Virus record (IMG/VR): IMGVR_UViG_3300044712_001509
Span: 1,279 to 65,278 of that record
From: a virus
Lineage: Duplodnaviria; Caudoviricetes
Reading direction: 5' to 3' (one strand)
Length of the DNA: 64,000 nt
Of the stretch, positions 5,803 to 39,852 are shown piece by piece. The notes beneath the pieces are model-generated. The model was given only the letters and a program-made list of their open reading frames with translations, did no database searches and was not told the DNA's origin. The number at the start of each line of letters is the position of its first letter. Position 1 is the first letter of the stretch. The translations under genes and the position numbers were made by a program.

Positions 5803-7268
5803 CGGACCGCCTCGCCGAGCTCGCCGCGGAGGTGGCGCGCCTGCGCCGCGCACCGCCGGCGGCGCCGCCCCGCGCGGTCGTGCCCCCGCCCCCGCCGCCC
5901 CCGGTCGAGGAGCCGGACGACCCCGGGCCACCGACGCGGCCGCACGCTCTCGCCTCGGGGTTCGTCGAGGGTCTCCGGGGCGCGCCGCCGTCCGTTGTCG
6001 CCTCCGCCATCGCGGACCTTTCGGACAAGGAGGCCGAGGCCCTGCTCTACGACTGGCGGGGGATCTGGGCCCGCCCGGATCAGGTCACGCCCCCCGGCGA
6101 GTGGCTGACCTGGCTCATCCTCTCCGGCCGCGGGTGGGGCAAGACGCGGACCGGCGCGCAGTGGGTGATCGAGAACGCCCGCGCGCACCCGGGGTGGCGG
6201 TGGTCCCTGATCGCCCGCACCGCGGCCGACGTGCGCGACACCATGGTCGAGGGGGAGTCGGGGCTCATCGCGTGCTCGCCGCCGGACTTCACGCCCGAGT
6301 ACGAGCCGTCGAAGCGCCGCCTCACATGGCCGAACGGGTTCATCGCGACGACGTTCACGGCCGAGGAGCCCGACGCCCTCCGCGGCCCCCAGCATCACGG
6401 CGCCTGGGCCGACGAGCTCGCCTCGTGGAAGTACCTCGAGGACACCTGGGACAACATGCAGTTTGGCCTCCGCCTCGGCGAGCGGCCGCGCGTCCTCGTG
6501 ACGACGACGCCGCGTCCGGTGAAGGTCCTCCGGGAGCTCATGGCGGACCCGACGACGGTCATCACCCGGGGCTCCACCTTCGACAACGCGGCGAACCTCG
6601 CCGCGCCGCAACTCGCCAAACTCCGCGCCAAGTATGAGGGGACGCGCCTCGGCCGCCAGGAGCTCAACGGCGAGGTCCTCGACGACGTGCCCGGCGCGCT
6701 CTGGACGCGGGCCATCATCGACGCGGCCCGGGTCAAGAAGGCGCCCGAGCTCGTGCGGATCGTCGTCGCGATCGACCCGGCGGTGACCAGCGGCGAGGAG
6801 TCCGACGACACCGGCATCATCGTGATCGGGAAGGGGACGGACGGGCACCTCTACGTCCTCGCCGACCGGACGTGCCACCTGTCGCCCGATGCCTGGGCGC
6901 GCCGCGCCGTCGTCGCCTATGACGAGTTCCGGGCGGACCGCATCGTCGGCGAGGTCAACAACGGCGGGGACCTCGTCGAGCACACGATCCGCACCGTGCG
7001 GAAGACGCTCCCCTTCAACGCGGTCCGGGCGAGCCGCGGCAAGCGGGTGCGCGCCGAGCCGGTGTCGGCTCTCTACGAGCAGGGGAAGGTCCACCACGTC
7101 GGCTCGTTCGCCGAGCTCGAGGACCAGATGTGCACCTTCCTCCCCGAGGGGAACGAGAAGAGTCCGGACCGCGTGGACGCCCTGGTCTGGGGCGCGGCCG
7201 AACTGATCGAGGGTCTCATCCCCACGTTCGGTGACGTCGAGAAGCCGAAAATGCCGCGCCGGTGGTGA
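5799..7268 (+). CDS. terL: Terminase large subunit
   Basis: Walker A GRGWGKT, Walker B WADE, TTTP, nuclease VAIDPA, SPDRVDA. Confidence 0.95.
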   Translation: MTDRLAELAAEVARLRRAPPAAPPRAVVPPPPPPPVEEPDDPGPPTRPHALASGFVEGLRGAPPSVVASAIADLSDKEAEALLYDWRGIWARPDQVTPPGEWLTWLILSGRGWGKTRTGAQWVIENARAHPGWRWSLIARTAADVRDTMVEGESGLIACSPPDFTPEYEPSKRRLTWPNGFIATTFTAEEPDALRGPQHHGAWADELASWKYLEDTWDNMQFGLRLGERPRVLVTTTPRPVKVLRELMADPTTVITRGSTFDNAANLAAPQLAKLRAKYEGTRLGRQELNGEVLDDVPGALWTRAIIDAARVKKAPELVRIVVAIDPAVTSGEESDDTGIIVIGKGTDGHLYVLADRTCHLSPDAWARRAVVAYDEFRADRIVGEVNNGGDLVEHTIRTVRKTLPFNAVRASRGKRVRAEPVSALYEQGKVHHVGSFAELEDQMCTFLPEGNEKSPDRVDALVWGAAELIEGLIPTFGDVEKPKMPRRW

Positions 7269-7286
7269 GGGTGCAACCGCGCAGGG

Positions 7287-7321
7287 TTGTGCAACGCGCG
7301 CAAGCGTGCAACCCGCACCCG
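7287..7321 (+). promoter_or_regulatory. Putative late promoter, copy 1
   Basis: TTGTGC-N12-CGTGCAACCCGC-N4-GTG; same geometry at 15614, 32627 and 33246. Confidence 0.65.
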
Positions 7322-9300
7322 TGAGCGACGACATCCGGGGACTGAGGGAGCGGGCGGGGCTGACGCAGGCCGCGCTCGCCGAGCGCGCGGGCGTCTCCCG
7401 CCGCACGGTGGCGACGGTCGAGGCGGGCGGGGCTATCTCCCGCCGCAGCGAGGGCCGGCTCCTCGCCGCGCTCGCCGCCAAGGGCCCGCCGCCCGCGCTC
7501 CGGAACGACGCCATCGTCGCCCCCGCCGCGGCCGCCGCGCCGGCGCTCCCCGAGCCCCCGCCCGAGCAGACCGTCAAGGTCGAGGGCCGCACCATCCGGA
7601 TCCAGGTCCAGCGGTACCAGGACCTCCCCGTCGTCTCCGCGGAGACCCAGTACGACACCGTCGTCGCCGTCCGCGCCGCGCTGACGCAGCTCATGCAGGG
7701 GAGCTTCGCGGGCGCCTCCGAGATGATCGAGGCGATGATCGCCGACGACCGGATCGCCGGCGTCACCTCCCAGCGCATCGACGGGCTCTTCGGCCTCCCG
7801 TTCGAGCTCGCGCCCGCCCTCGAGGACGACGCCTTCGCCTCCGCCCTCGCCGAGCAGGTCGGGACGCTCTGGCCCCGCATCGCCCCCGACGCCGTCCTCC
7901 GGGATCTCTGGCTGTGGGGTCGCTTCCTCGGGTACGGCGTCGCGGAGAAGCTCTACGACACCGAGTCGCCCGATGGCTGGGTGCCGACGCTCAAGTTCTG
8001 GCACCCGCGCTACATGTACTGGCGGTGGCCCGCCGGCGACGAGCGCGAGGGGCGCCTCGTCATCAACACGCGCACGGGCCCGGTCGAGGTGTGGATCAGC
8101 GAGTCCGACGGCCTCGTCCACTCCAAGGGGCCCGACGGCCTCGAGCAGATCGGCCACTGGGTCATCTACGCGCCGTTCGGATGGTCGCGCGGGTGGGTCA
8201 AGGCGATGGTGCGGTCGCTCGCGATCCCCTGGCTCTTCCGCCAGTTCGGATACCGCGACTGGGGCCGCTACAACGAGGTCCACGGCCTTCCGATCCGCGG
8301 CATCATCGAGCCCGCCGAATGGGACGACGCCGAGAAGAAGAAGGCGCTCCGCGAGGTCGCCTCCCTCGCCGGCGAGTCGGTGGTGCGGCTCCCGCAGCGC
8401 GCCGACGGGAAGGGCTTCGACCTCAAGTTGATCGAGGCCTCGGCGCAGACCTACGACTCGTTCAAACTCGCGCTCGAGCAGGCCAACTCCTCCGTCGCGA
8501 TCGTCATCCTCGGCCAGAACCTCACCACCGAGGTGAAGGGCGGCGCCTACTCCGCCGCCCAGGTGCACGAGCGGGTCGCCGCGGCGATCCTCCGCTCCGA
8601 CGCGACCACGCTCTCCGCCACCCTGCGCGCCCAGGTCCTCGTCGAGTGGGCCGCGCTCAACCACGGGCCGAAGGCCGACGGGAAGGCGCCGCGGCCGGCC
8701 TGGGACACCGAGCCGCCCGAGGACAAGAAGGCGGCCGCCGAGGCGCTCAACACGACGGCGACGGGCCTCGCCACCCTCCGGAAGACGCGGCTCCCGGTCG
8801 ACTACGCGAAGCTCTGCGAGCAGCGCGGGATCCCCGTCCTCGCCGGCGCGCCGTTCCCCGAGCCGGACGACGTCGACGGCGGCGGGGACGCCGGAGGCGC
8901 GGGCGAGGACGACGACCCCAAGGCGAAGAAGGGCAAGGCGGCGCTCTCGGCGGTCCGCCGCCACGCGAAGGCGATCCGGGTGGCGCTGGGCGCCGGCGGG
9001 CTGAGCCGCCGGGACCGGGCGCCGCTGCAGGGGCAGGCCTACGTCGACGAGCTCGCCGAGGCCGGGCGGGACGAGGCGGCCAAGGTCCTCCGCGGGGACG
9101 TGAAGGCGCTCCGGGCGGTGGTGATGGCGGCGAAGGCCGGGCCGGACGGGAAGGTCGACGCCGCCGCCCTGCGCGCCGAGCTCGCCCGCGTCCTGGGCGA
9201 GATGGAGCCGGCCGCCCTCGCCGCGGTGCTGGGGCGGTGCATGGTCCTGGCGAACCTATCCGGGCGCTACGCGGTGACCAAGGAGGTCATCTCCGAGTGA
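7321..9300 (+). CDS. Mu gp29-like (DUF935) portal protein with N-terminal XRE helix-turn-helix
   Basis: IRGLRERAGLTQAALAERAGVSRRTVATVE, then LGYGVAE, HGLP, ILGQNLTTE, AAQVHERV. Confidence 0.88.
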   Translation: MSDDIRGLRERAGLTQAALAERAGVSRRTVATVEAGGAISRRSEGRLLAALAAKGPPPALRNDAIVAPAAAAAPALPEPPPEQTVKVEGRTIRIQVQRYQDLPVVSAETQYDTVVAVRAALTQLMQGSFAGASEMIEAMIADDRIAGVTSQRIDGLFGLPFELAPALEDDAFASALAEQVGTLWPRIAPDAVLRDLWLWGRFLGYGVAEKLYDTESPDGWVPTLKFWHPRYMYWRWPAGDEREGRLVINTRTGPVEVWISESDGLVHSKGPDGLEQIGHWVIYAPFGWSRGWVKAMVRSLAIPWLFRQFGYRDWGRYNEVHGLPIRGIIEPAEWDDAEKKKALREVASLAGESVVRLPQRADGKGFDLKLIEASAQTYDSFKLALEQANSSVAIVILGQNLTTEVKGGAYSAAQVHERVAAAILRSDATTLSATLRAQVLVEWAALNHGPKADGKAPRPAWDTEPPEDKKAAAEALNTTATGLATLRKTRLPVDYAKLCEQRGIPVLAGAPFPEPDDVDGGGDAGGAGEDDDPKAKKGKAALSAVRRHAKAIRVALGAGGLSRRDRAPLQGQAYVDELAEAGRDEAAKVLRGDVKALRAVVMAAKAGPDGKVDAAALRAELARVLGEMEPAALAAVLGRCMVLANLSGRYAVTKEVISE

Positions 9301-9491
9301 CCACCATCCCCGTCCGGTTCGCGGTCTGCTCCCCCGACGGCGATGTCCGCGAGGAGCTGCGGGAGATCGAGGTCACCACCGACGGCGACCTCCGGTTCCC
9401 GCCGATCGCCGTGCGGCCCGGGGACCGGGTGTACTGGATCACGGCGCTGCCGGGCGTGTTCGGCGGCTTCACCGTGCAGCCGATGGCGTGA
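9297..9491 (+). CDS. Small hypothetical protein
   Basis: GTGA overlap; fills the gap before gpF. Confidence 0.5.
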   Translation: MTTIPVRFAVCSPDGDVREELREIEVTTDGDLRFPPIAVRPGDRVYWITALPGVFGGFTVQPMA

Positions 9492-9497
9492 GGACCG

Positions 9498-10181
9498 ATG
9501 GCCCGCAAGACGCCCGACCGCCCCGCCGCCGACCCCCGCGCCCTCGACGAGGCCGTCCAGTGGTTCCGTGACCGCCTCATCATGGACGACGAGGAGTTCC
9601 AGGTCCTCGAGGACGTCACCCACGACCAGGCCTTCACCCTCGCCGGCGTCGCCCAGCTCGACCTCGTGACCGAGGTCTGGGAGGCGCTCGACCGCGCCGT
9701 CGCCCACGGCGAGACGTTGCGGGACTTCCAGGCGCGGGTCTCCGACCGCCTCGCCGCGGCGTGGGGCATGGAGCGCCCCTGGCGCGTGGAAACGATCTAC
9801 CGGAACAACGTGCAGCGCGCCTACAGCGCCGGCCGGTGGCAGCAGATGAACGAGCCCGCGATCAAGGCGGCGCGCCCCTTCCGCCGCTTCTCCGCGATCC
9901 TCGACCTCCGCACCACCACCCTGTGCCGCGGCCTCGACGGGACGGTCCGCCCGGCCGATGACCCGTGGTGGGACACGCACTGCCCACCTCTCCATCACCA
10001 ATGTCGCAGCGCGGTGGTGACCCTGTCGAAGAGCGAGGCCGGGGACGCGCCGCTGCCGCCGCCGCCCGACATCCCGCCGGCGGAGGGGTTCGGGTCGGCG
10101 CCCGCGCTCGAGGGCTGGGAGCCTGACCTCGGCGAGTACCCCGCCGAGCTCGCGCAGCGGTTCCGGAGGACCGGCACATGA
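9498..10181 (+). CDS. Mu gpF-like head morphogenesis protein
   Basis: AFTLAG, ETIYRNN, DLRTTTLC, PPLHHQCRS. Confidence 0.9.
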   Translation: MARKTPDRPAADPRALDEAVQWFRDRLIMDDEEFQVLEDVTHDQAFTLAGVAQLDLVTEVWEALDRAVAHGETLRDFQARVSDRLAAAWGMERPWRVETIYRNNVQRAYSAGRWQQMNEPAIKAARPFRRFSAILDLRTTTLCRGLDGTVRPADDPWWDTHCPPLHHQCRSAVVTLSKSEAGDAPLPPPPDIPPAEGFGSAPALEGWEPDLGEYPAELAQRFRRTGT

Positions 10182-10510
10182 GCACGACCCAGGAGCAGAC
10201 CGCCGCGGCGAACGCCCGCGGCGAGGGGTTCAAGGCCGACATGGGGAAGCTCGACTGGACGCTCTTCCCCTTCGACGGCGCCGAGGAGATCGTCCGCGTC
10301 CTCGAGGACGGCGCGCGCAAGTACGCCCGCGACAACTGGCGCAAGGTCCCGGAGGCGACGACGCGCTACCGCGCCGCGGCCCTCCGGCACTTGATCGCCG
10401 ACGCGCGCGGCGAGCGCCTCGACCCCGAGACGGGCCGGCCGCACCTCGCGCACGCCGGGTGCTGCCTGCTCTTCGTCCTCGCCCTCGAGCGCGCGGGGCG
10501 CGTGCCATGA
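10178..10510 (+). CDS. dATP/dGTP diphosphohydrolase (DUF5664)
   Basis: KADMGK...GARKYARDNWRK...AALRHL...DPETGRPHLAHAGCCLLF. Confidence 0.85.
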   Translation: MSTTQEQTAAANARGEGFKADMGKLDWTLFPFDGAEEIVRVLEDGARKYARDNWRKVPEATTRYRAAALRHLIADARGERLDPETGRPHLAHAGCCLLFVLALERAGRVP

Positions 10511-31068: not shown

Positions 31069-31863
31069 ATGTCGACGACCTACAGCGGCAACCCGGCGAG
31101 CGGCGCGCAGAGCCCCGCGATCCAGATCACGCGCCCCTCGGACGGGGATGCGCTCAACGCGGCCAGCATCAACGCGACGCTGCAGAAGATCGCCGACTAC
31201 ATCGCGTTTCTCCAGGCGCACGTGGCTCTGATCGACGTCGGTCAGAGTTTCACGGCCGCCCAGGCGTTCCTCGACGCCATCCAGCTCAGCAAGTCGGGCG
31301 ACCAGTCGATCTTCAAGTATGGCAGCGGCGCGCTGGAGATCGGTACCCTCATCAACTCGGATCTCGGCTTCAAGACGAACGGCGTCACCAGGGCAGTCCT
31401 TCGCGCGTCGGATGGGCGGATCGGGTCGCTCGCCGATCCGGTTCAGAACCAGGACGCCGACACGATGGCGGCGCGGAACGCGGCGATCACGGCCGGGTTC
31501 AACATCTCGACCGCAGCGATCACCCCGGGATCGAACTGGTCCGGGGCGCAGTCGATCGTCAAGAAGAGCGGTAGGACCGTCACGGTCATCATCTCCGCGA
31601 TGGGAGGCGTCGGCGCCTCGTGGGGTTCCGTCGCCAACGTCCCGGCGGGCTTCCGACCCGGCGCGGACTGGGGATGGCGGTTCCGGGGTGCCATCATCAA
31701 TTACACTGGGCCCGGGCATTCCTACGACGCAGACATCTCGATCGAGTCGAACGGAAACGTTTCCGTGGTGGGGTACGACAGCGGAACCGAGTACGCCCCT
31801 CCGTTCACCATCGCGAACAGCGTCGGCGTCCTCGCCTTCGCGACCTATCTGGCCGAGAACTAG
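31069..31863 (+). CDS. Short tail fibre
   Basis: PSDGDALNAASIN, LADPVQNQDA, ANVPAGFRP. Confidence 0.7.
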   Translation: MSTTYSGNPASGAQSPAIQITRPSDGDALNAASINATLQKIADYIAFLQAHVALIDVGQSFTAAQAFLDAIQLSKSGDQSIFKYGSGALEIGTLINSDLGFKTNGVTRAVLRASDGRIGSLADPVQNQDADTMAARNAAITAGFNISTAAITPGSNWSGAQSIVKKSGRTVTVIISAMGGVGASWGSVANVPAGFRPGADWGWRFRGAIINYTGPGHSYDADISIESNGNVSVVGYDSGTEYAPPFTIANSVGVLAFATYLAEN

Positions 31864-32195
31864 TCCGCGATCGACGCGCACTGCTCCGTCCGGCTGTACT
31901 CGACGGAGATGTCCGGTCCCGTCCACGGGTCGGCTGCGCTGACGCGCGCGTAGTGCACGTAGAACCACCGCGCCGCCTGGCCGTCCACGCGCAGGCACTC
32001 CCAACCGCAGGTCACCTCGACCGCCGGCCCGCCCGGCGGGGCCTCATCGCGGACCGACGGCGCGTCGCACACGACCACTCCGCCGGTGACGCGCGAGACG
32101 GCGGCGGCCTTCGCGGAGAGCCCGCCGTGGACGTACTCGGTGCCACCGCACGCCACCATCGCCATCGCAGCCAGGGTCACGAGCGCCGTCTTCAT
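31860..32195 (-). CDS. Lipoprotein, antisense moron
   Basis: Lipobox-type signal MKTALVTLAAMAMVA-CGG. Confidence 0.65.
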   Translation of the reverse strand: MKTALVTLAAMAMVACGGTEYVHGGLSAKAAAVSRVTGGVVVCDAPSVRDEAPPGGPAVEVTCGWECLRVDGQAARWFYVHYARVSAADPWTGPDISVEYSRTEQCASIAD

Positions 32196-32258: not shown

Positions 32259-32582
32259 CTAACCCTTCGGGCGTATCCGCTCTCGTAGGAGGCGGAGTTC
32301 GGCGAGGAGGTGGTCGACGCGGTCGCGGCGGTCAGGGCGGACATCCGGGCGGGGCCCGCGGGCGTCGCCGGGTAGGGCGAGCCACCGCGCCACCGCCGGC
32401 GCGAGCTCGCGCAGTTCATCGAGGAGCGCCAGCGCGCGGGCCTGGGGCTGGGTGAGGACGTTCTCGATGGGGATGGTCGCGCGGGCCTCCGCCGGCGCGC
32501 CGCGAGCGTCGGAGCCGCAGAACCGGCACCGGAGGGCGCCCGCGGCGAGGTCGCGGCCGCAGCAGGGGCACCGGCATGGCAC
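32259..32582 (-). CDS. Zinc-ribbon protein
   Basis: CPCCG...CRFCG; start uncertain. Confidence 0.45.
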   Translation of the reverse strand: MPCRCPCCGRDLAAGALRCRFCGSDARGAPAEARATIPIENVLTQPQARALALLDELRELAPAVARWLALPGDARGPRPDVRPDRRDRVDHLLAELRLLRERIRPKG

Positions 32583-32626
32583 GGGCCCACGGTAGCGAGG
32601 CGGGGGAGTCCGGGCAAGCCCCCGCC

Positions 32627-32661
32627 TTGCCGCGGTCCCCCGACCGTGCAAACCGCGGACG
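32627..32661 (+). promoter_or_regulatory. Putative late promoter, copy 3
   Basis: TTGCCG-N12-CGTGCAAACCGC-N4-G. Confidence 0.65.
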
Positions 32662-32698
32662 TTGGGGCACGTCCTCCGTGCGCCCCGAAAGGAACGCC

Positions 32699-33211
32699 AT
32701 GCGCCGCTTCCCTGGTCTCCTCGCATTCGCGGTCGCCGCCGGCCTCTTCGCGGCCGCCTCGCTCGCCTCCCCTGCCTTCGCCGCCAGCGCGGCCGTCCCC
32801 TCGTCCACGGCGCAGTCCTCCTCGTGGAACCCGAGCCCCTCCGCTGCGACGTTCGCGCCGGACGCGATCACCACCGGCGCGCTGACCTCGGGGAACCTCG
32901 ACACGGGCACGGCCCGCGCGGTCGACTGCGAGGTCCAGAACGGCCCCTCCGCCGGCGCGCGCACCGTCCAGGCGCAGTGCTGGGATCCGACCTTCACCTC
33001 GACCGTGGGCCAGTACCCGACGACCCTCGCCGTCGCGACCGGCCAGACCGGATTCCTGCTCTTCGACCCCGCCGCGCCGGGCACGTCGCAGACGAACGTC
33101 TACGGCTCGTCGATGCTGGTGTACCCGGTCCGGCCGTGCCGCTACCTCACCGTCGGCGCGGCGGCGGCCGCCGGGCCCGCTCGCATCCTCTGCACGCTCC
33201 GGTCGCACTGA
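32699..33211 (+). CDS. Secreted beta-rich protein
   Basis: Signal peptide MRRFPGLLAFAV...SPAFA; 4 Cys; AGGA RBS. Confidence 0.7.
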   Translation: MRRFPGLLAFAVAAGLFAAASLASPAFAASAAVPSSTAQSSSWNPSPSAATFAPDAITTGALTSGNLDTGTARAVDCEVQNGPSAGARTVQAQCWDPTFTSTVGQYPTTLAVATGQTGFLLFDPAAPGTSQTNVYGSSMLVYPVRPCRYLTVGAAAAAGPARILCTLRSH

Positions 33212-33245: not shown

Positions 33246-33280
33246 TTGCCCGGGCGCGCGCGGCGTGCCAACCGCTGACG
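33246..33280 (+). promoter_or_regulatory. Putative late promoter, copy 4 (lysis/fibre operon)
   Basis: TTGCCC-N12-CGTGCCAACCGC-N4-GTG. Confidence 0.7.
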
Positions 33281-33867
33281 TGGACGCCCCGGCCCGCACG
33301 TATCTGCCGATCGAGACGAACCCGGCGAAGCCCGGCGACTACGCGTCCGGGCGGAAGCTGACGCCCGTCGACACGATCGTCCTGCACACGACCGAGGGCG
33401 GGTCGATCGAGGGTGCAACGGAGTGGTGGGACCGCGAGGACGTCGTCGCGTCCGCGCACTTCGTCATCGACGGCAAGCGGATCGTGCAGCGGGTGGCGGA
33501 GGGCGACCGCGCCTACCACTGCGGGAACGCCGCTATGCACCTCCGGTCCATCGGGATCGAGGTCGTCGGGCACTGCGCCGATCCGCGGATGTGGACCCCG
33601 GCGGTGATGGCCCAGCTCGTCGAGCTCTGCGCCTACCTCATCGGGAACCACCCTCGCATCCCGATCCTGCACCAGGCCGGGCCCGGCATCTGCGGGCACT
33701 GCGACGTCCCCGACCCCAAGCACCAAGGGCTCTACGGCGGCGCCTCGCACCACACCGACCCCGGGCGCGGCTTTCCCTGGGACCCGTTCCTCCACGCCCT
33801 GCGCGTCGCGGTGACGCGCACCACCCCGCCCGCGGCCGGGGAGTCCGCCGCGAAGGAGACCCCATGA
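33280..33867 (+). CDS. Endolysin, N-acetylmuramoyl-L-alanine amidase (Amidase_2)
   Basis: IVLHTTEG, SAHFVI, AYHCG, SIGIE, GHCDV, HTDPG..FPW. Confidence 0.92.
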   Translation: MDAPARTYLPIETNPAKPGDYASGRKLTPVDTIVLHTTEGGSIEGATEWWDREDVVASAHFVIDGKRIVQRVAEGDRAYHCGNAAMHLRSIGIEVVGHCADPRMWTPAVMAQLVELCAYLIGNHPRIPILHQAGPGICGHCDVPDPKHQGLYGGASHHTDPGRGFPWDPFLHALRVAVTRTTPPAAGESAAKETP

Positions 33868-34736
33868 CCCCCCTCGTCGCAGTCCTGTTCGGCCCCTCGT
33901 GGAAGACCTCCCTCGCCGGCCTCCTGAGCGGCGCCGCCGTGGCGGCGGTCGCCTTCGCCCAGAAGACGGGCGGCCTCGCCTGGTACGCCATCGCTGGCGC
34001 CCTCGTCCTCGCCGGTCGCCTCCTCGGGGACTCATCGCCGGGACTGAAGGGCGGCGTCCTCGAGCTCCTCCTCGGCTCGGCGCCCACGAGTTCCGCCGTC
34101 GGCGCCCTCACGGCCATCGGGACCGCCGTCTACGGCTTCGCGCAGACCCAGAACGGCCTCGGGTGGGCGGCCGTCGCCGCCGGCGTCGCCGCGGTGCTCC
34201 GCTTCGCCAAGGTTCCGGGCGTGGACCGGCCGCAGCTCGCGGCGGTGCCGAGCGACCCGCCCAAGGGGTTCATCCTCCCCCGCGTCGAGCTCGCGGTCGC
34301 GGTCCTCATCCTCGCCCTCATGGCCGCCGCGTTCCTCGTCCTCCCGAGCCGCGCGCGCGGGCAGGAGACGCAGCCGGCCGCCGCGCCCACCGCGCCCCTC
34401 GCCATCCAGGTCACGCCGGACCTCTCGCTCCGCCTCAACGTCTCCGTGGTCGCGGGGTCCTACGACCTGACCCACCGGGCGTGGCTGGGCCAGGCGCCGA
34501 TCACGGGCCTGTACGCCCTGACGTCGAAGCGGCTCCTCGACGCGGGCGTCGCCGTCGGCGGGTCGCTCGCGTTCGACACCTCCTCGAGGCCGTCCGGCGA
34601 GCTCAACGGCGGCCTCGTCAGCCCCAAGCTCGTGATCTCGCCGGCGCTCGCGCTCCACGGCGCGGTGCTCTACGCGAGGCGGTTCGGCCCCGACGCGGCG
34701 AACCTGCTCCGCATCGCGCCCACGCTCGAGTTCTAG
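33864..34736 (+). CDS. Holin-like protein fused via an internal signal sequence to a predicted outer-membrane beta-domain
   Basis: SWKTSLAG holin-type start, four TM segments, KGFILPRVELAVAVLILAL, C-terminal LRIAPTLEF. Confidence 0.65.
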   Translation: MTPLVAVLFGPSWKTSLAGLLSGAAVAAVAFAQKTGGLAWYAIAGALVLAGRLLGDSSPGLKGGVLELLLGSAPTSSAVGALTAIGTAVYGFAQTQNGLGWAAVAAGVAAVLRFAKVPGVDRPQLAAVPSDPPKGFILPRVELAVAVLILALMAAAFLVLPSRARGQETQPAAAPTAPLAIQVTPDLSLRLNVSVVAGSYDLTHRAWLGQAPITGLYALTSKRLLDAGVAVGGSLAFDTSSRPSGELNGGLVSPKLVISPALALHGAVLYARRFGPDAANLLRIAPTLEF

Positions 34737-34739
34737 GCC

Positions 34740-35072
34740 GTGGACGCCGCCGTCGTCACCACCATCGCCAGCTCGGTTCCGGACTCCGGGGCCGCGGTCG
34801 CCATCGTCTTCGGCGTGCTGGCGGTGCTGGGCGGCGCGTTCGGCTTCCCGTGGTGGTGGGGCCCGGCGTGCAGCCTCGCCCGGGCCGCCTGGCAGGGCCG
34901 GCGTGCGCTTGCGGACGTGAAGGTCGAGCAGGCCCCGGAGCCGATCTCCGACGGCGGCGCCGCCGAGGATCGCCTCATCCGGCCCGCGCCCGCGCCGGCG
35001 CCCCACTACGAGGTGACCGACCCGCTGCGGCCGATCGAGCCCGGCGGCGGGTCGACCGGGGGGATGAGCTGA
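34740..35072 (+). CDS. Single-pass membrane protein in the lysis cassette
   Basis: AVAIVFGVLAVLGGAFGFPWWW. Confidence 0.5.
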   Translation: MDAAVVTTIASSVPDSGAAVAIVFGVLAVLGGAFGFPWWWGPACSLARAAWQGRRALADVKVEQAPEPISDGGAAEDRLIRPAPAPAPHYEVTDPLRPIEPGGGSTGGMS

Positions 35073-35470
35073 TGCCCCGCCTCCTCGCCGCCATCGTCCT
35101 GCTCGCCGGGTGCTCGAGCGCGCGCGTCGCGAGCAGGTCCGAGCTCGACCGCTCGCCGGTCGGGCAGTTCGGGATCGTGCGGCCGCCGCCCATCGGGTGC
35201 TCGGAGACGTCCGGCTCGCCCTGGAACGCCGCGCGGTGGGTCTCGATCTGGGACGGCGACCACGGCTGGGGCTACTGCTCCGTCAACGCCGTCACCCCCG
35301 ACCGCGTGCGGTGCGTCTTCGACCACTGCGAGCGCCTCGAGTCCGGCGCGTGGCGCTGCGGCGCGCCGTCCACCTTCCCCGCCTGGGCGGCGGCGGCTCC
35401 AGGGTCTCACCCCGGGGTCGGTGCGGCGAGTGGGTCGCCGCCGCCCTCTTCCTCCGCGAGGAGCCCATGA
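35072..35470 (+). CDS. Cys-rich lipoprotein
   Basis: MPRLLAAIVLLAG-C lipobox; TGATG coupling. Confidence 0.65.
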   Translation: MPRLLAAIVLLAGCSSARVASRSELDRSPVGQFGIVRPPPIGCSETSGSPWNAARWVSIWDGDHGWGYCSVNAVTPDRVRCVFDHCERLESGAWRCGAPSTFPAWAAAAPGSHPGVGAASGSPPPSSSARSP

Positions 35471-35733
35471 AGTTCAACCCGCGCTCGTTCCTGTTCGGTG
35501 TCCTCGCCGCGATCGTCCCCACCGTCGGCGCGGCCTGGGCGTTCGCCACCCTCGCCGCCGATCACGTCCTGCAGCCCCACCTCGAGGGCGCGAAGGCGCG
35601 CATCGGCGTCATGTGCACGCTCGCGGACGTCCAGAACCGGAAGCTGAAGGCGATCTGCGATCGAACCCAGGCCGCCTGCGACACGTCGATGGACGAGGCG
35701 CTGGTGGCCGCCTGCCACGAGGCCACGAAGTAG
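35467..35733 (+). CDS. Membrane-anchored protein (i-spanin or antiholin candidate)
   Basis: N-terminal TM, helical C-terminus with 4 Cys. Confidence 0.55.
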   Translation: MKFNPRSFLFGVLAAIVPTVGAAWAFATLAADHVLQPHLEGAKARIGVMCTLADVQNRKLKAICDRTQAACDTSMDEALVAACHEATK

Positions 35734-36802: not shown

Positions 36803-36988
36803 GTGCTCAGGACCGCGCTCGTCGCGGTGGCGCTCCTCGCCGGGTGCGCCACCGCGAAGCCGCAGCATCAGGTCGCCACCATCGCCCCGGCGAGGGCAGA
36901 GGCGGTCGCGGGGCAGGTCTTCGGGCCGCCCCGCGACGTGGTGGTCAGGATTCAGCCGGCCTACGCTACCGGCGCCCAGAACCGCTGA
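36803..36988 (+). CDS. Small lipoprotein
   Basis: LRTALVAVALLAG-C lipobox; GAGG RBS. Confidence 0.55.
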   Translation: MLRTALVAVALLAGCATAKPQHQVATIAPARAEAVAGQVFGPPRDVVVRIQPAYATGAQNR

Positions 36989-36999
36989 CGGAGGACACG

Positions 37000-39852
37000 A
37001 TGCGCCGCCTCGCCCTTCTCGCGCTGGCCGCAGGGGCGGCCATCGTCGCCCTCTCGACCTCGGCGCTCCAGCCCTACAAGGCGCCGGTCGACTACCACGA
37101 CCCGACCGCCGTCTCGAACGAGCCCATCACCGTCACGACCGAGGACGGCGTGCCGGTGGCCTATCTCGCCGAGGCGCCGCTCGACCCGGCGCAGGGCGGG
37201 ACCATCTCGGTCACGCTCGGCGGCGCGGGATTCACGCGCGTCACCGGGACGCCGGCCGCGGGCCAGTACCGGATCCGAACCCAGGTGCTCCCGGGCGGTG
37301 CCTTGGAGTACATGCCGGTCCTGGTTCTCAACGCGGCCGACCTCGGCAAGACCGGGACGGCCTCGTACTGGGGCACCGGTTCCATCGTTCACCGCGGCAC
37401 GTTCCGCTCGCTCATCGGCAACGCGTGGGACCTGATGGGCGTGGCGGTGCAAACCGCCGACTGCACGACCTCGCCGCCAGCCGACCAGATCACCTACGAC
37501 CAGTGGAAGTCGGGGGTCTCCGGCCACTGGGCGTGCTGGCAGATCCCGTCCTCGAGCGGCTCCTCGACCTCCACGGTGACGGTGGCCTACGGCGCCGGGT
37601 ACGCCGGGGTCATCTCGGTCCAGGCCAACGACGCCGTGACGCTGCTCCAGGCAGCCGGGACGGGCGTGGCGGGCGCTATCACGGCGACCGCCAGCTCCGC
37701 CGGAGGTTCGAACGCGACCATCCTCGTGAGCTACGCCGCCGGCGCTGCCGGGATCGTCACGGCGGTCGTGTCGGCGTCTCGCGCGATGCCGGCGGCGACC
37801 GGAACGGGGGCCGCGGGGGTGCTCTCGACCTCGCTGGGGTTGGCGCGCACGCTCGTGGGCGCCACGGGGGCGGGGGCCGCGGGCACCATCACGGCCACGG
37901 CGAACAGCAGCGGAACCGCGCTCGCGATCCGCTCGGGCTTCCCGGTGGTCGTGAGCCAGGACACGCGGTCGGTCCCGTACACGATCACCACGGCGAGTTT
38001 CAACGCCAACGCGGGAGACACCCTCGTCGCGTTCGGCACGGCGTACACGCTCCCGGTCCTGACCGGCTCCTCGCTGCGCTGGGTGCCCCGTGCGCTCGCG
38101 CGTGCGCAGAACGACCAGGCGCGCCAGGTGGCGGTCTACACGGCGGTCGTCCCGGCCGGCGGCGTGACCGGCGAGACCATCTCATTGACGGTGCCCACCG
38201 TGCAGGAGTGGGACACCTCGCCCATCACGTCCACGACCGCGTCGGCCTCGCAGATCCAGGTCTTCGCGTTCGACAACTCGGCGGGCGTCGGGAGCGTGAA
38301 GTGGCGCGGGGACGTGGTGGCCGGCGACACGCCCGCGCTCACGATGAAGGCGAACGCTACGGGGTCGATGTTCCTCGTGGGCGGCGGGATCTGGGACATC
38401 GCGTGGACGCCAGACGCGAACACGACGCTGGTGGGGTCCGCGTTCAACGGGCACCTAGGTGTGATGCGGCGGACCGCTGCGGCGCCCGGAAACGTCACCA
38501 TCGGAGCCACTGGCACGGCCGCCTACTGGGCGCTGGCCGGCATCGAGGTTCTCCCGTCCACGGCGACGGCACCGACAAAGAAACTCCTCGTGTTGGGCGA
38601 CTCGGGGGTGGAGTCGAACAACTCCACGACCCCGTGGCCCCCGCTGGTGCAGGAGTCCCTCGGCGCAGACTGGGCGCTCTACGATGGCGGCGTGTGGTGG
38701 GCTGTCTCCCCGCACGTCCGCACGCGCTGGGCGAGCACCTGGAGCAAGGAGACGTGGGATATGGTGGTGCTGCACGTCGGTTCGAACGACGTGACCAACC
38801 ACGGCGTGCTCTACACGACCGACTGGGCAGCGGTCGCCTCGTCCATTGCGACCGCGGTCGGTCAGAACCGCTACATCGTGCAGACGATCCAGGCAACGCA
38901 GTGGTACGGGATGTCGGGGGCGGGGGCCTACGACACGGCCGACGCCGCGCAGCGCTCCAACGCGCCCTCCGGCGCGCACTTCTTCGACTGGGCGGCTGCG
39001 CTCGGGACGAGCGGCCCCACGGTGATGTCCACGTACATGTCTTCGGACGGCCAGCACTGGAACGACTCGGGCAACGCGCACATCGCGGACGAGTTTGTCA
39101 CGGAGATCAACTCGCTGATGGCGCTGCCCGCGAACCCAGTTCAGCCGGCATGGGGTGCAGCCGGTGCCGTTGCCAACGTGGACGGCTCGGGGAGCATCAG
39201 TCTGGCCAGTCCCACCGGCGTGACTGCCGGGGACATCCTCATCGCGGCCATCGGTGGGGGTTACACGTCGCTACCGCCATCCACGATCACGGACGGAAAC
39301 GGCAAGGCGTGGGCGCGCAAGGGCGCCATCAGTGGAGATGCGGGCGCCGGGATGGTCGTGTACTCGCGGCGCGCGGACGGCGGGGAAGCGTCCAGCACCA
39401 CGTTCACGGGGCTCAGCACCGCGGGTCTGGAGGGGGTGGCGTTCCGGGTCAGCGGTGTCACGGCAACAGGTGACGGGTTTGATCCTGGGTTCAACTCCAC
39501 GGGCGCCGCCCCGGGCCTCGGCTCGTTCTCGGACAAGCTGGATTTCTCTGCCTCTGCCGCAGGCGCGGTCGCGGCGGACAAGGATCTCATCGTCGTGGCC
39601 TGCGCGGTGCGGGCGACCGACAGCGGTGCTACCGGTTCCATCACCAGCGTCACCCCGCCGACGGGACCAGCGACGACCCTTGGCGCGAGCGGGTGGACTG
39701 GGAGCGCTGTCTCAGGCTTCGGCATGATCGGAATTGGCGTCTGGTATGGCACGAAGTCGGGCTCGGGCAACTCGCTGAACGCCCCGTTCTCGTGGGTGGG
39801 CCAGGGGGACGGGCCAGGTACAACCTGCGTGCAGATGGCGTTGAAGCAGTGA
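37000..39852 (+). CDS. Secreted multidomain protein with 22-aa repeats and an SGNH/GDSL hydrolase
   Basis: Signal MRRLALLALAAG; LGDS, HVGSND, DGQHWN. Confidence 0.8.
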   Translation: MRRLALLALAAGAAIVALSTSALQPYKAPVDYHDPTAVSNEPITVTTEDGVPVAYLAEAPLDPAQGGTISVTLGGAGFTRVTGTPAAGQYRIRTQVLPGGALEYMPVLVLNAADLGKTGTASYWGTGSIVHRGTFRSLIGNAWDLMGVAVQTADCTTSPPADQITYDQWKSGVSGHWACWQIPSSSGSSTSTVTVAYGAGYAGVISVQANDAVTLLQAAGTGVAGAITATASSAGGSNATILVSYAAGAAGIVTAVVSASRAMPAATGTGAAGVLSTSLGLARTLVGATGAGAAGTITATANSSGTALAIRSGFPVVVSQDTRSVPYTITTASFNANAGDTLVAFGTAYTLPVLTGSSLRWVPRALARAQNDQARQVAVYTAVVPAGGVTGETISLTVPTVQEWDTSPITSTTASASQIQVFAFDNSAGVGSVKWRGDVVAGDTPALTMKANATGSMFLVGGGIWDIAWTPDANTTLVGSAFNGHLGVMRRTAAAPGNVTIGATGTAAYWALAGIEVLPSTATAPTKKLLVLGDSGVESNNSTTPWPPLVQESLGADWALYDGGVWWAVSPHVRTRWASTWSKETWDMVVLHVGSNDVTNHGVLYTTDWAAVASSIATAVGQNRYIVQTIQATQWYGMSGAGAYDTADAAQRSNAPSGAHFFDWAAALGTSGPTVMSTYMSSDGQHWNDSGNAHIADEFVTEINSLMALPANPVQPAWGAAGAVANVDGSGSISLASPTGVTAGDILIAAIGGGYTSLPPSTITDGNGKAWARKGAISGDAGAGMVVYSRRADGGEASSTTFTGLSTAGLEGVAFRVSGVTATGDGFDPGFNSTGAAPGLGSFSDKLDFSASAAGAVAADKDLIVVACAVRATDSGATGSITSVTPPTGPATTLGASGWTGSAVSGFGMIGIGVWYGTKSGSGNSLNAPFSWVGQGDGPGTTCVQMALKQ

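Follow-up and report, generated by a model that had tools for sequence, protein, structure and literature searches.

We analysed computationally a 64-kb stretch of the virus record IMGVR_UViG_3300044712_001509 (the window, meaning that whole stretch, from which positions are counted unless a relative's locus is named) and describe an open reading frame (ORF) at 33864-34736 on the plus strand (P0001; 290 amino acids (aa) plus stop), which lies directly behind the endolysin gene. We lean towards reading this ORF as a two-product precursor from which signal peptidase I would release a mini outer-membrane protein, leaving a holin-like protein in the inner membrane. The reading draws on the ATGA coupling of the ORF to an endolysin without signal peptide, a conserved cleavage-type site, stand-alone relatives of the barrel that carry their own signal peptide, the barrel model and the modularity of the family. 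The analysis directly supports the reading frame, the gene position and the module structure; it also shows that the cleavage-type site is conserved and that the barrel is modelled with confidence.

The target ORF is a real gene. Its ATG overlaps the stop of the amidase gene as ATGA and is preceded by a strong GAAGGAG ribosome-binding site; GC at codon positions 1, 2 and 3 is 0.74, 0.55 and 0.98, and GC at the third position (GC3) is 0.94-1.00 across three sub-segments of the frame, with 0.94 in the N part. None of the in-frame ATG, GTG or TTG codons between residues 100 and 156 is preceded by a ribosome-binding site; upstream of GTG120 there is only AAGG. The gene that it overlaps, at 33265-33867 (+), encodes an N-acetylmuramoyl-L-alanine amidase (Pfam PF01510 Amidase_2, E 4.5e-21; PHROG endolysin/amidase families) with no signal peptide seen in its sequence, so that a holin would be needed for this endolysin to reach the cell wall. 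P0001 itself matched no family in Pfam (at E ≤ 1), PHROGs or NCBIfam, and a sequence profile search of the PDB returned nothing meaningful (a lone row at E 7.5).

The N module is built from a duplicated two-helix unit. Unit 1 (residues 4-54; 33873-34025, +) consists of two Ala/Gly-rich helices with the motif FGPSWKTSLAG, and unit 2 (residues 65-115; 34056-34208, +) is a diverged copy of it, residues 4-40 and 65-101 being identical at 12 of 37 positions (32%; E 1e-4 for the single comparison). AlphaFold2 predicted helices at residues 13-32, 38-54, 78-95 and 99-114, which may be membrane helices. Independent proteins made of this module occur in a one-unit form of 76-81 aa and a two-unit form of 130-133 aa (P0011 among the latter), and these stand-alone units carry charged tails at their C-terminal ends. 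A profile of the unit matched only 5 unnamed stand-alone proteins; a motif S-W/N-K/R-T/S-S/T-L/I-x-G is common to many of the family's N modules. We call the N product holin-like on the strength of its gene position, size and helices, and of the endolysin without signal.

Behind the N module, a basic linker (residues 116-140; 34209-34283, +; K116, R122, K134 and R140) carries the motif PPKGF and is predicted to be cytoplasmic, forming the n-region of an internal signal. PPKG also stands ahead of the helix in P0002, P0005, P0006 and P0010, and P0022 has PPGKGF. The putative internal signal or start-transfer helix (residues 141-166; 34284-34361, +) has a hydrophobic core at 143-160 (18 residues; Kyte-Doolittle 2.8-3.1) followed by P161-S-R-A-R-G166, and signal peptidase I is predicted to cut between G166 and Q167. 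The helix and a small-x-small site are kept in all family members, nearly always preceding Q or D: a script found [A/V]-x-[A/G] before Q/D directly after the hydrophobic helix in 17 of 22 family rows and another small-x-small site in 3, and mis-located two rows (P0010 and P0014), whose sites were read by eye as SRAFG/QD and PALA/QA, the slash marking the cut. Residues 1-140 contain nine Lys/Arg, of which 8, as counted by eye, fall on the predicted cytoplasmic side of a five-helix model with the N-terminus in and the C-terminus out. A Pro/Ala-rich linker follows (residues 167-186; 34362-34421, +; predicted local distance difference test score (pLDDT) 67-88). From the predicted cut to the first barrel strand there are 20 residues in P0001 and 14-37 in 19 of the 20 members in which the script found the barrel motif.

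The C-terminal domain (residues 187-290; 34422-34733, +) is predicted to be an eight-stranded beta-barrel by AlphaFold2, fold searches, composition and ESM Atlas comparison. On the full protein (23-row alignment) AlphaFold2 gave residues 180-290 a pLDDT of 92-96; on the domain alone (21 rows) it returned eight strands at a mean pLDDT of 92.2 and a predicted TM-score (pTM) of 0.79. A VIA-align search of 48,161 chains was headed by the designed transmembrane barrel 6x9z (Z 7.3, root-mean-square deviation 3.3 Å, 90 aligned residues), followed by the OprF barrel (Z 6.3), NspA (Z 6.3, 103 aligned), PagL (Z 5.9), PcoB, Tsx, OmpA and OprH, and a tally of titles counts ~13 barrels of the outer-membrane or designed transmembrane kind within the top 20 rows. 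The Foldseek rows against the PDB with the better probabilities included PagP, TMB2.3, OmpG, Ail, OmpA and OmpT, with soluble barrels among them. Among the predicted viral structures of BFVD the best rows were phage proteins with opacity or outer-membrane barrel names and Mx8 p58 (probability 0.95-1.00, E ~1e-2), and in the ESM Atlas the feature neighbours of the barrel included PagL and Phage_OMP clusters (0.91) and its structural neighbours OMP_b-brl clusters (TM 0.53-0.55 by query).

The barrel sequences agree with a membrane setting. Across 21 members the barrel part is 5-17% charged and ~40% G/A/S/T, and the C-terminal residue is F in 19 members and Y or L in one each; the last strand of P0001, LLRIAPTLEF (34704-34733, +), resembles the C-terminal signal of outer-membrane proteins. 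Each strand sets a hydrophobic face against a small or polar face with few charges (G/A/S/T make up 0.91 of the non-hydrophobic face in strand 4). Composition, strand faces and terminal F therefore fit a lipid-embedded mini-barrel better than a soluble one. At 104 residues the barrel is shorter than the matched OprF-N, PagL and NspA (chains of 135-155 residues) and close in size to designed transmembrane barrels (120 residues). In the 21-member alignment, invariant or near-invariant positions are restricted to G, P, L, Y and F, and it shows no conserved His, Ser, Asp or Glu; a lipid A-modifying enzyme of the PagL/PagP type, with its catalytic His/Ser (plus Glu or Asp), was accordingly set aside as unlikely.

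The barrel family is rare. When 1.84 billion representatives were searched exhaustively with phmmer, 20 proteins came up at E ≤ 1e-3, and word-indexed searches and cluster look-ups added a few further members. Among 21 barrel-bearing clusters, 15 have an upstream module of hydrophobic helices, 1 (P0008) has a soluble N extension and 5 consist of the barrel alone, led by an ordinary N-terminal signal peptide. The four-part layout of P0001 recurs at 63-66% identity in P0002, which comes from a different sample. Against 50,697 GenBank phage records, tblastn of P0001, P0020 and P0015 gave no match and the amidase none at E ≤ 1e-8. Family-alignment searches of genome, viral and metagenome contigs yielded no confirmed relative, and single-protein searches were without match for P0009, P0011 (viral contigs), P0019 (genome contigs) and P0002 (metagenome contigs). 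One further candidate was rejected: a weak second profile match in the phage's own genome (locus L002; window ~37971-38261, minus strand; E 6.5e-5) has one TAG inside, is antisense to a large ORF and probably reflects Ala/Pro-rich composition.

A syntenic relative of 66.5 kb (L004) has the same order of amidase, ATGA overlap, barrel gene, one-helix gene, lipoprotein and second one-helix gene. Identity to the window is 80% for the amidase, 69% and 90% for the two one-helix proteins, 80% for the lipoprotein and 54% for the barrel. The barrel protein of L004 (P0010; L004 8001-9011) has an N module unrelated to that of P0001, with its own N-terminal signal peptide plus one helix, and keeps the PPKG-helix-SRAFG/QD element, followed by ~100 extra residues ahead of the barrel (a Cys-containing stretch read as helical and a Pro/Ala run of ~45 residues). 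P0010 would thus hold two putative signal peptidase sites in one chain. At a second locus (L003), P0019 (10001-10711) lies three genes after a peptidoglycan enzyme with a Tlde1 domain (PF10908, E 4.3e-13) and precedes a one-helix protein read as coiled-coil. P0019 and P0024 are nearly identical over residues 1-115, which hold the N module and signal peptide, and ~30% identical beyond; the break coincides with the predicted cut, and this junction looks like a recombination junction. In some members the PPKG-helix-site element moves with the barrel, and in others the junction falls after the element. By these sequence comparisons the barrel is an exchangeable, fast-diverging cassette whose modules appear to be swapped at or near the signal peptide.

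The stand-alone form at a third locus (L005, P0018) has a TTG start behind its own AAAGGAGG ribosome-binding site. Upstream of it, an in-frame Cys-rich (CxxC) stretch within L005 7833-8498 is included in some gene calls (P0029). This barrel gene lies between a Cro/CI-type helix-turn-helix (HTH) gene (7452-7667, minus strand) and a gene for a phage Ku protein (9462-10307, minus strand; PF02735, E 8e-27).

Much of this architecture had been proposed in a first-pass annotation of the window, namely an ORF overlapping the amidase stop, a duplicated N-terminal two-helix unit, a signal-peptidase-like ARG-QE site and C-terminal amphipathic strands ending in F. The analysis bears these out: the ATGA overlap is in place, one- and two-unit stand-alone proteins accompany the internal duplication, A164-R-G166/Q167-E is present and conserved in the family, and the strands fold into the confident eight-stranded model. 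The broader proposal that a single gene supplies both an inner-membrane holin-like part and, by way of a Sec-type signal, an outer-membrane barrel finds support in structure prediction, family comparison and gene position. The same annotation had offered an exit pore for exported fibre parts as one role of the barrel, which we consider unlikely, the model being eight-stranded like OmpX, NspA and PagL; barrels of this class have no open channel.

In the proposed mechanism, the N module would enter the inner membrane as two two-helix hairpins through Sec/YidC with its N-terminus in the cytoplasm, and the basic PPKGF linker would remain cytoplasmic. The 18-residue hydrophobic helix would then act as an internal Sec start-transfer signal that exports the C-terminal part. 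Cleavage by signal peptidase I after A164-R-G166 would leave a five-helix, holin-like inner-membrane protein of ~17 kDa and free a protein of ~124 residues, made up of the 20-residue Pro/Ala linker and the 104-residue barrel, which periplasmic chaperones and the beta-barrel assembly machinery (BAM) would place in the outer membrane as an eight-stranded barrel. We infer membrane insertion, cleavage, outer-membrane location and any holin activity of the product from the evidence above.

The proposal of a cut precursor has to be weighed against one in which the chain stays whole. The central helix would then be a permanent fifth membrane helix that tethers the beta domain at the periplasmic face of the inner membrane, where the uncleaved protein would act either as a holin with a periplasmic domain (the outline of T4 holin T) or as a short tether after loss of the wall, a 'reversed spanin'. 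We judge this rather unlikely, and the evidence is divided. Retention of the fusion in 15 of 21 clusters suits an anchor, and in P0010 the ~100 residues between helix and barrel come nearer to a periplasm-spanning design, which keeps the tether reading alive for some members. A small-x-small site before Q/D that is kept across the family is hard to explain if it is never cut, however, and the stand-alone forms carry ordinary cleavable signal peptides. The distance from inner to outer membrane is ~20 nm or more (a general figure, not that of this host), and the 20-residue linker of P0001 would cover at most ~7-9 nm fully extended, too short for a periplasm of general width; the uncleaved, reversed unimolecular spanin offered as one option by the first-pass annotation is therefore unlikely. 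Composition and terminal F also fit a lipid-embedded barrel, which, as long as it is held at the inner membrane, could not be assembled into the outer. The same features speak to a further possibility, that the C-terminal domain is a soluble periplasmic beta-barrel, cleaved or not, serving as a regulator or binding module. LpqH (Z 6.1), RanBP-type domains and PsbO appear at similar fold-search scores and no outer-membrane hidden Markov model (HMM) was matched, but a charged fraction of 5-17%, strand faces that are mostly G/A/S/T where not hydrophobic, an aromatic terminal residue in 20 of 21 members, the prevalence of membrane barrels among the top VIA-align rows and the phage outer-membrane-named proteins that head the BFVD rows make a soluble domain improbable.

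Gene prediction itself could mislead, since gene callers over-extend ORFs in high-GC DNA, and two genes might have been read as one, either with the barrel made from an internal start or with the fusion created by an assembly error. The start of the P0018/P0028/P0029 cluster is indeed ambiguous, with an internal TTG behind a perfect ribosome-binding site, and P0008 has an internal Met just ahead of the signal peptide that follows its soluble extension. For P0001 we hold this to be very improbable: the in-frame starts at residues 100-156 lack a ribosome-binding site, independent homologues of the N part exist and its GC3 is high, and P0002 repeats the four-part layout in another sample. The frame is open in 15 diverged clusters, each with a membrane N module ahead of the barrel, and because homologs are mostly fused, the fusion is not a sequencing error, the concern that the first-pass annotation had raised. 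That annotation had also likened a KG motif to a type IV prepilin cleavage motif with its Glu offset. The motif stands (K134-G135-F136, at 34263), with a hydrophobic helix behind K-G-F and PPKG(F) in at least 5 other members; the resemblance to a prepilin does not. Glu lies at +7 and not +5 and is not conserved (no Glu +5 in the four other KGF members read, P0002, P0005, P0006 and P0022), type IV prepilin leaders are short and N-terminal and this site lies behind 135 residues with four helices, and in every member the helix is followed by a distinct signal peptidase I-type site. Processing at G135/F136 by a prepilin peptidase is scarcely credible.

Several observations weigh against the two-product reading. 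The four helices of the N module are weakly hydrophobic (19-residue Kyte-Doolittle maxima ~1.5) and modelled at a pLDDT of 46-75; the target ORF matched no holin family in Pfam, PHROGs or NCBIfam, and its nearest language-model clusters with holin families score 0.83 in the ESM Atlas, a level often reached by chance. The hydrophobic core of the internal signal, by reading, is ~16-21 residues in fused forms against ~10-15 in stand-alone forms, and a longer core could favour an uncleaved anchor. On the barrel side, all VIA-align Z scores are below 8, a range that the tool says can reflect a common arrangement, Foldseek against the PDB gave no match at E ≤ 1e-3, and the soluble barrels LpqH, RanBP and PsbO are mixed into the fold-search lists. 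None of the Pfam outer-membrane families PF13505 (OMP_b-brl), PF06316 (Ail_Lom) and PF24653 (Phage_OMP) was matched at E ≤ 1, and the Pro at -5 of the C-terminal motif RIAPTLEF is unusual for a beta-signal. The genomic contexts cover 4 of ~21 clusters (the window, L003 with P0019, L004 with P0010 and L005 with P0018), and at L005 the stand-alone barrel gene adjoins the divergent HTH regulator with no lysis gene beside it, so the barrel is not tied to lysis everywhere. A Pfam scan of 23 family members matched 15 families, none of them one of the three outer-membrane families, and NCBIfam gave no outer-membrane barrel family match for the barrel-bearing proteins scanned.

The phage around the target ORF is a myophage with Mu-like head genes. 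Its virus record (65,278 bp, of which the window covers nearly all at ~72% GC) has direct terminal repeats and is rated 100% complete. Structural genes include a T4-type large terminase, a Mu-type portal, a Mu gpI protease, a gpT capsid, a DUF2586 protein (read as the tail sheath), baseplate J and a P2 gpI-like protein. Among isolated phages, Myxococcus phage Mx4 is closest in its capsid (42.9% identity), and a Myxococcota-like host with two membranes is plausible. The stop-to-stop frame of the portal (7207-9297) has an HTH_31/HTH_3 match at residues 43-100, at the start of the frame, which probably marks a small regulator gene of its own that lies in frame ahead of the portal start.

Downstream of the target ORF three further genes follow with tightly overlapping stops and starts, none assigned to a family by Pfam, PHROG and NCBIfam scans. 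The first (34740-35072, +; 110 aa; 69% identity in L004) encodes one membrane helix (with GFPWWW) and a basic, Pro-rich C-terminal part and is a candidate holin or lysis accessory. The second (35072-35470, +; 132 aa; 80% identity in L004) encodes a lipoprotein with the lipobox LLAGC and 7 Cys, a candidate outer-membrane lysis component. The third (35467-35733, +; 88 aa; 90% identity in L004) combines a membrane helix at the N-terminus with 55 C-terminal residues that include Cys and read as helical, and would be Rz-like in outline only. The remark of the first-pass annotation that no clear Rz/Rz1 pair is visible was therefore incomplete, as this lipoprotein lies between single-helix genes just downstream. 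The genes at 34740-35733 may supply this phage with its holin and spanins. The one-helix proteins are alternative holin candidates. Complex prediction of the periplasmic part of the 88-aa protein with the mature lipoprotein scored 0.00, which gives no answer for or against a spanin-like pair.

Further genes near the cassette were noted in passing. A 61-aa lipoprotein (36803-36988; LLAGC) has chance-level similarity to Rz-like spanin PHROGs (E 0.07) and overlaps the start of a ~1000-aa protein (36844-39852), which carries a signal peptide and weakly matches a GDSL/SGNH hydrolase (E 2e-5, under the Pfam cut-off). Just upstream of the amidase lies a gene for a secreted 170-aa protein (32699-33211, +), and on the minus strand a small lipoprotein-like gene and a Cys-rich, zinc-ribbon-like gene (31860-32195 and 32259-32726), both with counterparts in L004.

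We compared the predicted products with known systems from each side of the fusion. The predicted membrane-helix hairpins of the target and its translational coupling to a signal-less endolysin recall holins (class II two-helix holins and T4 holin T), as does the 76-133 aa length of its stand-alone N modules; its helices, unlike those of holins, are weakly hydrophobic and match no holin family. We know of no holin with an internal signal peptide followed by an outer-membrane barrel, and a limited full-text literature search (titles and beginnings of abstracts) found no described case of such a fusion. Like spanins (Rz/Rz1; T1 gp11), the target product would address both membranes from a gene in the lysis cassette. 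Unlike a unimolecular spanin, it has no lipobox Cys and no C-terminal membrane helix, and the order of its membrane signals is reversed; its short linker and conserved signal peptidase site, which implies two products, also set it apart. A parallel for the processing is the cytochrome b/c1 polyprotein FbcH of Bradyrhizobium, in which a multi-helix inner-membrane part precedes an internal signal sequence; this sequence takes what lies downstream across the membrane and is cleaved by signal peptidase, in unrelated biology.

The barrel is nearest to lambda Lom and the OmpX/Ail class. It shares with them small size in a phage, a signal peptide, a C-terminal aromatic residue and structural matches to NspA, OmpA, PagL and OmpX-like proteins, and, like Lom, it is probably made late and diverges fast. 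It differs in having no sequence or HMM similarity to that class, in its ~104 residues with minimal loops, and in standing behind an inner-membrane module inside a lysis cassette, whereas the Lom class occupies a moron position. Like the cyanophage family PF24653 Phage_OMP, it is a phage mini barrel (~109 residues in that family) with a Phage_OMP cluster as an ESM Atlas neighbour; it has no match to the HMM of that family, and its model is a complete eight-stranded monomer. The accessible text of 10.64898/2026.10.24.761521 describes Phage_OMP as a six-stranded half-barrel predicted to dimerise, counts 1,603 barrel outer-membrane proteins in huge phages with eight-stranded ones as the commonest class, and cites binding of Lom to LamB. 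Myxococcus phage Mx8 p58 (141 aa; L006 8298-8723, minus strand), a structural look-alike of the barrel (probability 0.95), has its gene on the opposite strand directly behind those for the virion structure, in a moron-like position.

For the role of the barrel our first choice, held tentatively, is that of a late surface protein which, by analogy with Lom, may block phage adsorption to infected cells and debris. Lambda Lom and other small barrel proteins of the outer membrane keep phages from infecting or adsorbing, and Lom increases late in infection and blocks lambda infection, as far as set out in the accessible part of 10.1101/2025.02.28.640651. Fast divergence, cassette swapping and the L005 context all fit such a role. 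The next choice, a lysis factor that weakens the outer membrane, is doubtful and stays in play through the tight endolysin coupling in two phages.

A still speculative extension is that P0001 represents a new class of processed 'holin-barrel' polyprotein, which would deliver, from a single round of translation, an inner-membrane hole-former and a minimal outer-membrane barrel effector in a fixed 1:1 ratio at the time of lysis. If this is true, the barrel would act in one of two ways: by weakening the outer membrane, for instance through loading or jamming of BAM, as an alternative to spanins and disruptin, or by masking the phage's own receptor on cells that are dying, which would save progeny from waste. 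About 15% of phages have no recognisable spanin, according to the accessible text of 10.1101/515445. Disruption of the outer membrane is the least understood step of phage lysis, and the fusion gives a directly testable candidate, which may turn out to be a lysis component of a new kind that acts on the outer membrane, or a block to adsorption that is made late. An internal signal peptide behind a multi-helix domain, if cut, would make this a rare bacterial-virus polyprotein processed by host signal peptidase, and the 104-residue barrel may serve as a minimal BAM substrate. For the family as a whole, the unit of adaptation would, if the reading holds, be the barrel cassette, which can be exchanged through junctions at the signal peptide.

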